A stretch of DNA of 64,000 nucleotides from assembly GCA_035627515.1 (NCBI GenBank), contig DASPLQ010000012.1:1199705-1263704 (forward strand), read 5' to 3'. Within the stretch, counting starts at the first letter, position 1. Each line of letters begins with the position of its first letter. The DNA is from Vitreimonas sp. (GTDB taxonomy: Bacteria > Patescibacteriota > Microgenomatia > UBA1400 > PJMF01). Made by a program: the position numbers and the translations under genes. Positions 44,281-45,373 of the stretch are shown one piece after another. The notes beneath the pieces were generated by a model. That model saw nothing but the letters and a program-made list of their open reading frames with translations, made no database searches and was not told where the DNA came from.

Positions 44281-44354
44281 GTGCCCGTAGCTCAGTTGGA
44301 TAGAGCAACTGCCTTCTAAGCAGTAGGTCGTGGGTTCGAGTCCCGCCGGGCACA
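44281..44354 (+). tRNA. tRNA-Arg (anticodon TCT)
   Basis: Cloverleaf readable by eye. Acceptor GTGCCCG/CGGGCAC. Anticodon stem ACTGC/GCAGT with loop CTTCTAA. T-arm GTGGGTTCGAGTCCCGC. No encoded CCA. TATAAT promoter just upstream. Confidence 0.85.
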
Positions 44355-44369
44355 CAAAATATTGGCATT

Positions 44370-45233
44370 CTACTTTGGCCAGGGAAGTGTCCAAACATAC
44401 TTTTGCTTATTTCTTGGCCCTCCCCGAGATTTCTTTTTATTTGACGGCTGTTTACTTTCTTCCCATCTCTTGATTTCAAGTTCAGAAAAGGCTAAAGCAT
44501 GAAATCTCGTACTTTGGGTCATCAGGAACACACCAAGCTTTACTTCATCATTTGACGAGTAATAAATTTTTCTTCGGTCTAGATCAATGCGCACCGGCAC
44601 AGGTGAATCAGCAAAGAGGTCGTTGTAATGAATATACTTCCATTTGCTCCGAGAGGTTCGAGTTGTTGAATTCTGATACCAGATTCTAATTGGAATTCTC
44701 AGCTCATTGAGTAAAGACGTCACTAATAGTTGTCGCTTGGGAGAAGGAATTTTCTTAACTTCAGTATTACGATTAGCTGCTTTCTCCAGTGGTAAGCTAC
44801 TCCAGCTCAATCGTTCAGCTAAAACAGGCTGACTGCGTTCTATGCCTTTCAGCAACCGTTTAATAACTTCATCAAAATGAGTCGTAACGCTGTCTCGAGC
44901 TCTTTTTATTTCAGGGCCACTTGGTTGAGGTCGAGAAGGAACATTGCTCGGTTTTAAGTATTGTTGGTAAATTTCCCATTTACTAAGCTCAGTCAAAAAA
45001 TAATGGAGCACCATTTTAAAACCTTCATCTAGCTTTTGGCCATGCTCATCCTCTTCTATTGCCTCACTTAATTCGGTGAACACATTTAACTGAATTGCCA
45101 AAAGAAAAAGTTGAGCCACGTCTCTATTAACGCCTAAGTCTCTAAACCGCACCTCAAAGCTTGTGAGCGTGCCATCTAAGTCTTGGATGCCTAATGCCGT
45201 CAAATACTCGGTTAAATAAAGATTATCTTCCAT
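44370..45233 (-). CDS. hypothetical protein (orphan, between two tRNA genes)
   Basis: 287 aa ORF with no recognisable motifs. Basic C-terminus (KKKSRGGPRNKQK). Confidence 0.45.
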   Translation of the reverse strand: MEDNLYLTEYLTALGIQDLDGTLTSFEVRFRDLGVNRDVAQLFLLAIQLNVFTELSEAIEEDEHGQKLDEGFKMVLHYFLTELSKWEIYQQYLKPSNVPSRPQPSGPEIKRARDSVTTHFDEVIKRLLKGIERSQPVLAERLSWSSLPLEKAANRNTEVKKIPSPKRQLLVTSLLNELRIPIRIWYQNSTTRTSRSKWKYIHYNDLFADSPVPVRIDLDRRKIYYSSNDEVKLGVFLMTQSTRFHALAFSELEIKRWEESKQPSNKKKSRGGPRNKQKYVWTLPWPK

Positions 45234-45298
45234 TGTCAGCTATTATATCTCCTGTGTGGCCAAAGACAGGGGAAACTGTTATAATTTCAGGTCTGAAT

Positions 45299-45373
45299 GG
45301 TGGTATTAGCTCAGTTGGTTAGAGCGCTGCTCTGTGAAAGCAGAGGTCGCCGGTTCGAGTCCGGTATACCACC
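45299..45373 (+). tRNA. tRNA-His (anticodon GTG) with genomically encoded G-1
   Basis: Acceptor GTGGTAT/ATACCAC. Extra 5' G pairs with discriminator C. Anticodon stem-loop CTGCT-CTGTGAA-AGCAG. T-arm GCCGGTTCGAGTCCGGT. TATAAT at 45278-83. Confidence 0.85.

Follow-up and report, generated by a model that had tools for sequence, protein, structure and literature searches.

The 64,000-nucleotide (nt) stretch of contig DASPLQ010000012.1 analysed here, referred to as the window, holds only two transfer RNA (tRNA) genes according to ARAGORN, tRNA-Arg(TCT) and tRNA-His(GTG), both on the plus strand, and the spacer between them is taken up by a minus-strand open reading frame (ORF) of 287 codons, here called the orphan (Table 1). 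The start codon of the orphan faces the tRNA-His gene and its stop codon begins 14–15 nt past the end of tRNA-Arg. A first-pass annotation of this DNA had described a single minus-strand ORF at these coordinates, with a basic tail, no recognisable domain and no integrase motif, and each of these points is borne out by the composition of the protein and by the profile libraries, which return nothing for it. The proximity of the ORF end to tRNA-Arg was likewise correctly seen, with the distance, given then as 16 nt, needing correction to 14–15 nt. As set out below, the orphan most likely represents a real gene, its C-terminal third being subject to some doubt.

Coding signal and start of the orphan gene

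The orphan is judged most likely to be a gene because its length is beyond chance, because its frame is the only one with a positive codon bias and because a TATAAT box precedes its start at the distance that this genome favours. In the non-coding frames of the window 6.8% of codons are stops, which gives a probability of 1.5e-9 per frame for a run of 287 open codons. Under a codon log-likelihood for which 25 confident genes of the window served as the training set, the orphan frame reaches +0.13 per codon and the other five frames fall between -0.32 and -0.79, so that it is the only positive frame of the six and the best-scoring one across the whole spacer. Codons 1 to ~170 score 0.15–0.40, like bona fide genes (mean 0.34). 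The base composition of the orphan, with a G+C content (GC) of 0.405 and a third-position GC (GC3) of 0.365, represents a small shift from the core genes (0.429 and 0.401, respectively). All plus-strand frames of the spacer score negative, leaving no gene on the opposite strand that could cast a shadow ORF. A gene in an alternative frame and a plus-strand pseudogene were also considered for the spacer and rejected, the five other frames being negative throughout.

Upstream of the start the minus strand reads GGAGATATAATAGCTGACA-ATG and includes a perfect TATAAT, which from its position probably serves as the -10 element for a leaderless or near-leaderless mRNA. It is separated by 9 nt from the -35 element of the tRNA-His promoter, so that the 66-nt gap between the orphan and tRNA-His would accommodate two back-to-back promoters. 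The same layout recurs elsewhere in the window: among its 60 genes a TANNNT sequence ends 6–8 nt ahead of the start at 17 sites, where 3.3 would be expected (for example at the starts 29351, 31921, 48993, 50361 and 62371), and Shine-Dalgarno-like sites are few. This pattern suggests that the organism starts many of its genes as leaderless mRNAs.

Homologue searches and properties of the predicted protein

Overall, no relative of the orphan was found among ~15 billion public proteins. The profile search proposed in the first-pass annotation was run with Pfam, NCBIfam, PHROGs and PADLOC and gave nothing for the whole protein at E<=10, and Pfam gave nothing for the two halves searched separately at E<=1. 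A PDB sequence search with the whole protein and with both halves returned noise only (E>=0.28). In a word-indexed search of 5.8 billion protein clusters the orphan found only itself, under a record naming it a hypothetical protein, and an exhaustive phmmer search of 1.84 billion representatives had the same outcome. No match was obtained by tblastn against phage and plasmid records, and neither the window nor the fetched loci contained a paralogue. Three assemblies carry the gene, and the protein encoded is identical in all of them. The missing homologues are best explained by sparse sampling combined with fast divergence; a singleton is expected here rather than surprising, because the lineage is thinly sampled and because genes of unknown function are overall mainly restricted at the species level (Vanni et al., 2022; AGNOSTOS, PMC9132574).

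The predicted product has a mass of 33.7 kDa, an isoelectric point (pI) of 9.4, no cysteine and a grand average of hydropathy of -0.62. By inspection alone it has no obvious signal peptide and no membrane or hydrophobic segment, and we infer a soluble cytoplasmic protein. Its charge is unevenly distributed: residues 1–100 are acidic (pI 4.3), residues 101–287 are basic, and the last 32 residues, which include the tail KKKSRGGPRNKQK, reach a pI of 10.8. The codons for the KKKSRGGPRNK tail lie antisense to a terminator-like hairpin and T-run downstream of tRNA-Arg (Table 1). Assignment as a HEPN-type RNase or toxin, for which an R-x5-H motif at residues 113–119 was considered, was rejected in the absence of any Pfam or PADLOC match at E<=10; the protein has two copies of the motif, compared with ~1.4 occurrences that we estimate by chance.

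The tRNA genes and their promoters

Both tRNA genes were called by ARAGORN and by Rfam (RF00005, gathering score 29) and are ordinary, separately promoted housekeeping genes. As the first-pass annotation had noted, each has its own TATAAT box, and both boxes were read from the sequence. The box ahead of tRNA-Arg is the probable -10 element of a monocistronic promoter; the 14-mer that contains it, CCATACTATAATAT, is found letter for letter in the closest relative (L015), and a TATAAT is present 15–30 nt 5' of tRNA-Arg(TCT) in L015, L016 and L010. The tRNA-His promoter matches the consensus at 10/12 positions in a promoter scan, with its TATAAT 13 nt ahead of G-1. Co-transcription of the two genes is unlikely.

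The tRNA-His gene has the features of the bacterial type, a GTG anticodon and an encoded G-1 that pairs with C73. The G at 45299 faces the discriminator C73 at 45373, from which it follows that G-1 is genomically encoded; the first-pass annotation was right to report this, but it is the normal state of bacterial tRNA-His genes.

The hairpin 3' of tRNA-Arg is weak. A terminator consensus scan found 1 site against 1.9 expected from shuffled sequences, and the fold z-score of -0.7 is not significant, so that its role as a possible intrinsic terminator of tRNA-Arg is only a suggestion. Scanning the spacer with Rfam for further RNA genes or tRNA remnants yielded sub-threshold noise only, including a Plastid-ycf2 match antisense over the tRNA-Arg coordinates and a YrlA match that scores 19 bits where the gathering score is 69.

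Table 1. Features at the tRNA-Arg to tRNA-His locus, in coordinates of the window
Feature	Position	Strand	Remarks
MarR-family regulator	43860–44231 (likely ATG; ORF opens with TTG at 43779)	+	Pfam MarR_2, 2.8e-12
TATAAT box of tRNA-Arg	44263–44268	+	12 nt ahead of the tRNA; read from sequence
tRNA-Arg, anticodon TCT	44281–44355 (ARAGORN), end 44354 (Rfam)	+	Rfam 73.6 bits; CCA not encoded
Orphan ORF, 287 aa	44370–45233	-	Occupies the 944-nt spacer between tRNA-Arg and tRNA-His; sole notable ORF there
Terminator-like hairpin and T-run, weak	44412–44439	+	57 nt 3' of tRNA-Arg; within the last ~23 codons of the orphan ORF
TATAAT box of the orphan, perfect	45242–45247	-	Ends 8 nt ahead of the ATG; read from sequence
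tRNA-His promoter	45257–45285	+	-35 TGGCCA, 17-nt spacing, TATAAT 45280–45285, TG extension
tRNA-His, anticodon GTG	45300–45374 (ARAGORN), end 45373 (Rfam), G-1 at 45299	+	Rfam 70.4 bits; CCA not encoded

Source organism and integrity of the assembly

The window has a GC of ~42% and encodes ATP synthase beta, class I LysRS, SerRS, SecA, type IV pilus ATPases, an archaeal-type ProRS and enolase. In the public record it is labelled 'MAG TPA Vitreimonas sp.', Vitreimonas being an alphaproteobacterial genus. This label is doubtful because it clashes with a GC of 42%, with a contig of 1.41 Mb and with relatives of the efflux proteins that are labelled Patescibacteria or Levybacteria; the bin is probably mislabelled, and an organism of the Patescibacteria or Candidate Phyla Radiation (CPR) type is more likely. 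The relatives of the HlyD-type adaptor are either metagenome proteins or carry the labels Patescibacteria group or Candidatus Levybacteria, and the best full-length one is 56% identical. The MarR regulator is matched by only two relatives, both on contigs of ~1.1 kb.

An independent Logan assembly (L001) spans window positions 44300–55233 with zero mismatches and joins the 3' part of tRNA-Arg to the orphan. In addition, relatives of genes from either side of the tRNAs co-occur on contigs L003 and L011. A chimeric join across tRNA-Arg was judged unlikely in view of the mismatch-free link and this co-occurrence. The Logan contig (at 44300) and L015 (at 1123–1143) both break inside tRNA-Arg, where the de Bruijn graph probably branches at tRNA sequence common to related genomes.

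Gene order around tRNA-Arg in relatives

The left flank of tRNA-Arg, made up of pyruvate kinase, the RND/HlyD efflux genes and the MarR regulator, recurs in relatives. In the window the MarR gene and the HlyD/RND efflux operon are divergently oriented, and the MarR gene lies directly 5' of tRNA-Arg. The closest relative found, L015 (MarR 55% and an HlyD fragment 80% identical), has the MarR gene followed by the CCATACTATAATAT box and the beginning of tRNA-Arg, its contig stopping in the D-arm, and L016 (MarR 41% identical) likewise has MarR followed by tRNA-Arg(TCT). In L018 and in the window alike, pyruvate kinase adjoins the RND/HlyD pair, and in L009/L010 pyruvate kinase and a small ORF precede tRNA-Arg(TCT), with more window-like genes further upstream.

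On the right of tRNA-Arg the gene order differs. L016 has a convergent minus-strand ORF that ends 1 nt past tRNA-Arg, and the 113 residues of it that are readable are not similar to the orphan and have no Pfam match. The ORF that comes after tRNA-Arg in L009/L010 is on the same strand as the tRNA and at least 400 aa long, with no tRNA-His within 1.2 kb. The gene 3' of tRNA-Arg(TCT) is thus unrelated in both of the other lineages where it can be read. This comparison places tRNA-Arg at a synteny breakpoint, anchored by a conserved MarR–tRNA-Arg junction; at protein identities of 41–56% the loss of synteny requires no special mechanism. Thirteen loci were fetched for HlyD relatives, and in none of them is tRNA-Arg or tRNA-His nearby; the RND pump had one distant match (23% identity) in species-representative genomes.

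Search for traces of mobile DNA

The first-pass annotation had proposed looking for a direct repeat of the 3' end of either tRNA as the boundary of an integrated element, and none exists in the 64 kb window. The 20–31-mers of both 3' ends, with up to 3 mismatches allowed, have no second copy there, neither 3' end is matched elsewhere in it over 12 nt or more, and a repeat search for attachment-site repeats returned nothing relevant. With blastn-short at word size 7 the only matches were the D-arm common to both tRNAs and a 13-nt D-arm-like match. The latter is an exact D-arm copy, TAGCTCAGTTGGT (or a 22-nt tRNA-5'-like stretch), on the minus strand at 55107–55119 within a Peptidase_C39_2/TPR gene (54706–55872); it does not extend into a tRNA and is probably due to chance. 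No integrase, recombinase or transposase domain was found in any ORF between 33 and 64 kb, and the tRNA 3' ends were not found in 2.9 million viral contigs.

The AT-rich block that the first-pass annotation placed downstream of tRNA-His does begin there: GC is 0.33–0.40 over 45375–54000, from the tRNA-His 3' end on, and the GC profile shows the fall from 45.0 to 54 kb. The block contains no integrase and no flanking repeat, and the GC of the orphan is nearer to that of the core genes than to that of the block. In one relative (L013, 7927–8922) the efflux locus is followed by gene fragments of an insertion sequence-type helix-turn-helix transposase and by a resolvase gene, showing that mobile DNA occurs near this efflux operon in the wider clade. 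Nothing marks the orphan itself as mobile DNA. The first-pass suggestion that the tRNA pair is a hotspot for acquired DNA is weakly supported: it agrees with the 3' flank, which differs in two other, distant lineages, and disagrees with the lack of repeats and of any integrase, recombinase or transposase within 10 kb on either side.

Origin and status of the orphan

The reading that we favour, with a probability of about 0.58, is that the orphan is a real, chromosomal and taxonomically restricted protein-coding gene of a poorly sampled genome, probably of the Patescibacteria/CPR type. Its own -10 box, placed 8 nt ahead of the ATG and arranged back to back with the promoter of tRNA-His, would drive its transcription into a leaderless-type mRNA, a layout that is enriched among the genes of the window. 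Its frame extends up to the tRNA-Arg gene, within the spacer of two independently transcribed housekeeping tRNA genes. Nothing found links its function to the tRNAs.

A number of observations weigh against the favoured reading. The whole-gene codon score of 0.13 lies near the bottom of the genes in the window (mean 0.32, standard deviation 0.07), and the last ~120 codons score ~0, as is seen in ~1–7% of 40-codon windows from real genes. The start has no -35 element at the proper spacing and no well-placed Shine-Dalgarno sequence, the nearest candidate being an AGGAG 15 nt from the ATG. AlphaFold2, run on the single sequence with no alignment, gave a predicted local distance difference test score (pLDDT) of 39 over the whole protein and of 46 over residues 1–160, which makes the models unusable; a low-confidence hint in them is that helices occupy residues 1–155 and that strands occur only from ~residue 180. 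From the charge distribution alone one might guess, weakly, at a nucleic-acid-binding role for the basic half and at a partner or regulatory surface on the helical half.

Some of these features could also have been left by an old integration next to tRNA-Arg, the orphan then being leftover cargo at a hotspot whose integrase and attachment repeats have decayed. Such a history would fit the conserved left flank of tRNA-Arg (L015, L016, L009/L010 and L018) next to a 3' gene that is unrelated in each of the three readable lineages, the drop in GC to 0.33–0.40 for ~9 kb right past tRNA-His, and the low codon score of the orphan. We nevertheless consider it unlikely, given that the 64 kb hold no match of at least 12 nt to the tRNA 3' ends, that no integrase, recombinase or transposase domain lies between 33 and 64 kb, that neither the phage and plasmid records nor the 2.9 million viral contigs gave a match, and that the GC of the orphan is near that of the core genes; the lineages compared, at 41–56% identity, can moreover lose synteny without a special mechanism. 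An origin as a young gene, which arose de novo or was recently extended from the spacer, exploits the bidirectional, AT-rich promoter region of tRNA-His and may be expressed with little or no settled function, appears improbable. A de novo ORF of 287 codons would be unusually long at 42% GC (1.5e-9 per frame), the N-terminal ~170 codons show normal gene-like usage, and thin sampling of the lineage already accounts for the missing homologues. In favour of recent birth are the absence of a homologue among ~15 billion proteins, the C-terminal ~120 codons with no codon bias, the frame that stops 14–15 nt from tRNA-Arg with a Lys/Arg tail antisense to a T-rich terminator-like stretch, the lack of a confident AlphaFold fold, and the -10 box 9 nt from the tRNA-His -35 element.

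A narrower version, in which the orphan was recently born or much extended between two essential tRNA genes, borrowed the promoter region of tRNA-His and took its tail from the antisense of the tRNA-Arg terminator, is very improbable; if true, it would amount to bacterial de novo gene birth caught at a locus pinned by two tRNAs. That the ORF is spurious or decaying, open and untranslated in a non-coding spacer, we hold to be very unlikely too. The low codon score and the missing Shine-Dalgarno and -35 elements could be accounted for in this manner, but a chance ORF of this length is expected, by our estimate, ~3e-4 times per 1.4 Mb genome, no opposite-strand gene is available to be shadowed since all plus-strand frames are negative, and the frame is the best over its whole length and has a perfect -10 box at the distance favoured by the genome.

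Comparison with known systems

Arg and His tRNA genes are adjacent in the argX-hisR-leuT-proM operon of Escherichia coli. The present pair resembles that operon in that the Arg and His genes neighbour each other on one strand and in that tRNA-His has an encoded G-1 opposite C73; it differs in that the two genes are 944 nt apart, have their own -10 boxes, enclose an opposite-strand gene in the spacer and involve the Arg isoacceptor TCT. Genes with leaderless mRNAs and a -10 box just before the start codon are known from Actinobacteria and Deinococcus. The orphan is similar to these in the TATAAT 8 nt before its ATG, in the absence of a normally spaced Shine-Dalgarno sequence and in a layout enriched in the window, with the difference that here the layout derives from sequence statistics alone. 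The wide use of leaderless-type promoters that the window suggests would bear on gene calling in such genomes.

Islands and prophages targeted to tRNA genes, such as the asn-tDNA islands of Klebsiella (PMC4891358) and the tRNA hot spots of Sinorhizobium (PMC11476347), share with the present locus a variable content 3' of the tRNA and AT-rich DNA that begins exactly at a tRNA 3' end. Unlike those systems, this one lacks both a tyrosine or serine integrase and a directly repeated tRNA 3' end, and its inter-tRNA unit is a single gene of 0.9 kb. The orphan is also like the lineage-restricted unknown genes of Patescibacteria in AGNOSTOS (PMC9132574), which have no known domain, no homologue beyond a species-level lineage and a small metagenome-bin genome as their source; the orphan departs from them in that phmmer of 1.84 billion sequences finds only itself and in that its C-terminal third shows no codon bias. 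Species-restricted genes of unknown function are plentiful in Patescibacteria-type genomes, and the orphan carries no pointer to a new mechanism. As a clean singleton with a coding signal and a promoter-like box, it would suit studies of orphan or de novo genes once sister genomes become available.

Neighbouring genes

In L003 and L011 the RND/HlyD pair is linked to VTT, an Na/Ca-exchanger, a two-component system and Peptidase_C39, and relatives of the two-component system and of Peptidase_C39 sit 10–13 kb rightward in the window. The partners of the RND/HlyD pair therefore differ between L018 and the window (35813–44231) on the one hand and L003/L011 on the other, indicating that gene order in this region has been reshuffled around the tRNAs.

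The proteins of the AT-rich block are of a small housekeeping or detoxification type and include two NUDIX proteins, a glyoxalase/PhnB-like protein, OmdA, DUF1801, RDD, DUF4385, a dioxygenase, an RHH+TPR protein and several unknowns. On the plus strand of the block a 413-aa ORF (47131–48372) has no Pfam match and contains a HEYTH motif of the HExxH type, which hints that it may encode an undescribed zinc metalloprotease.

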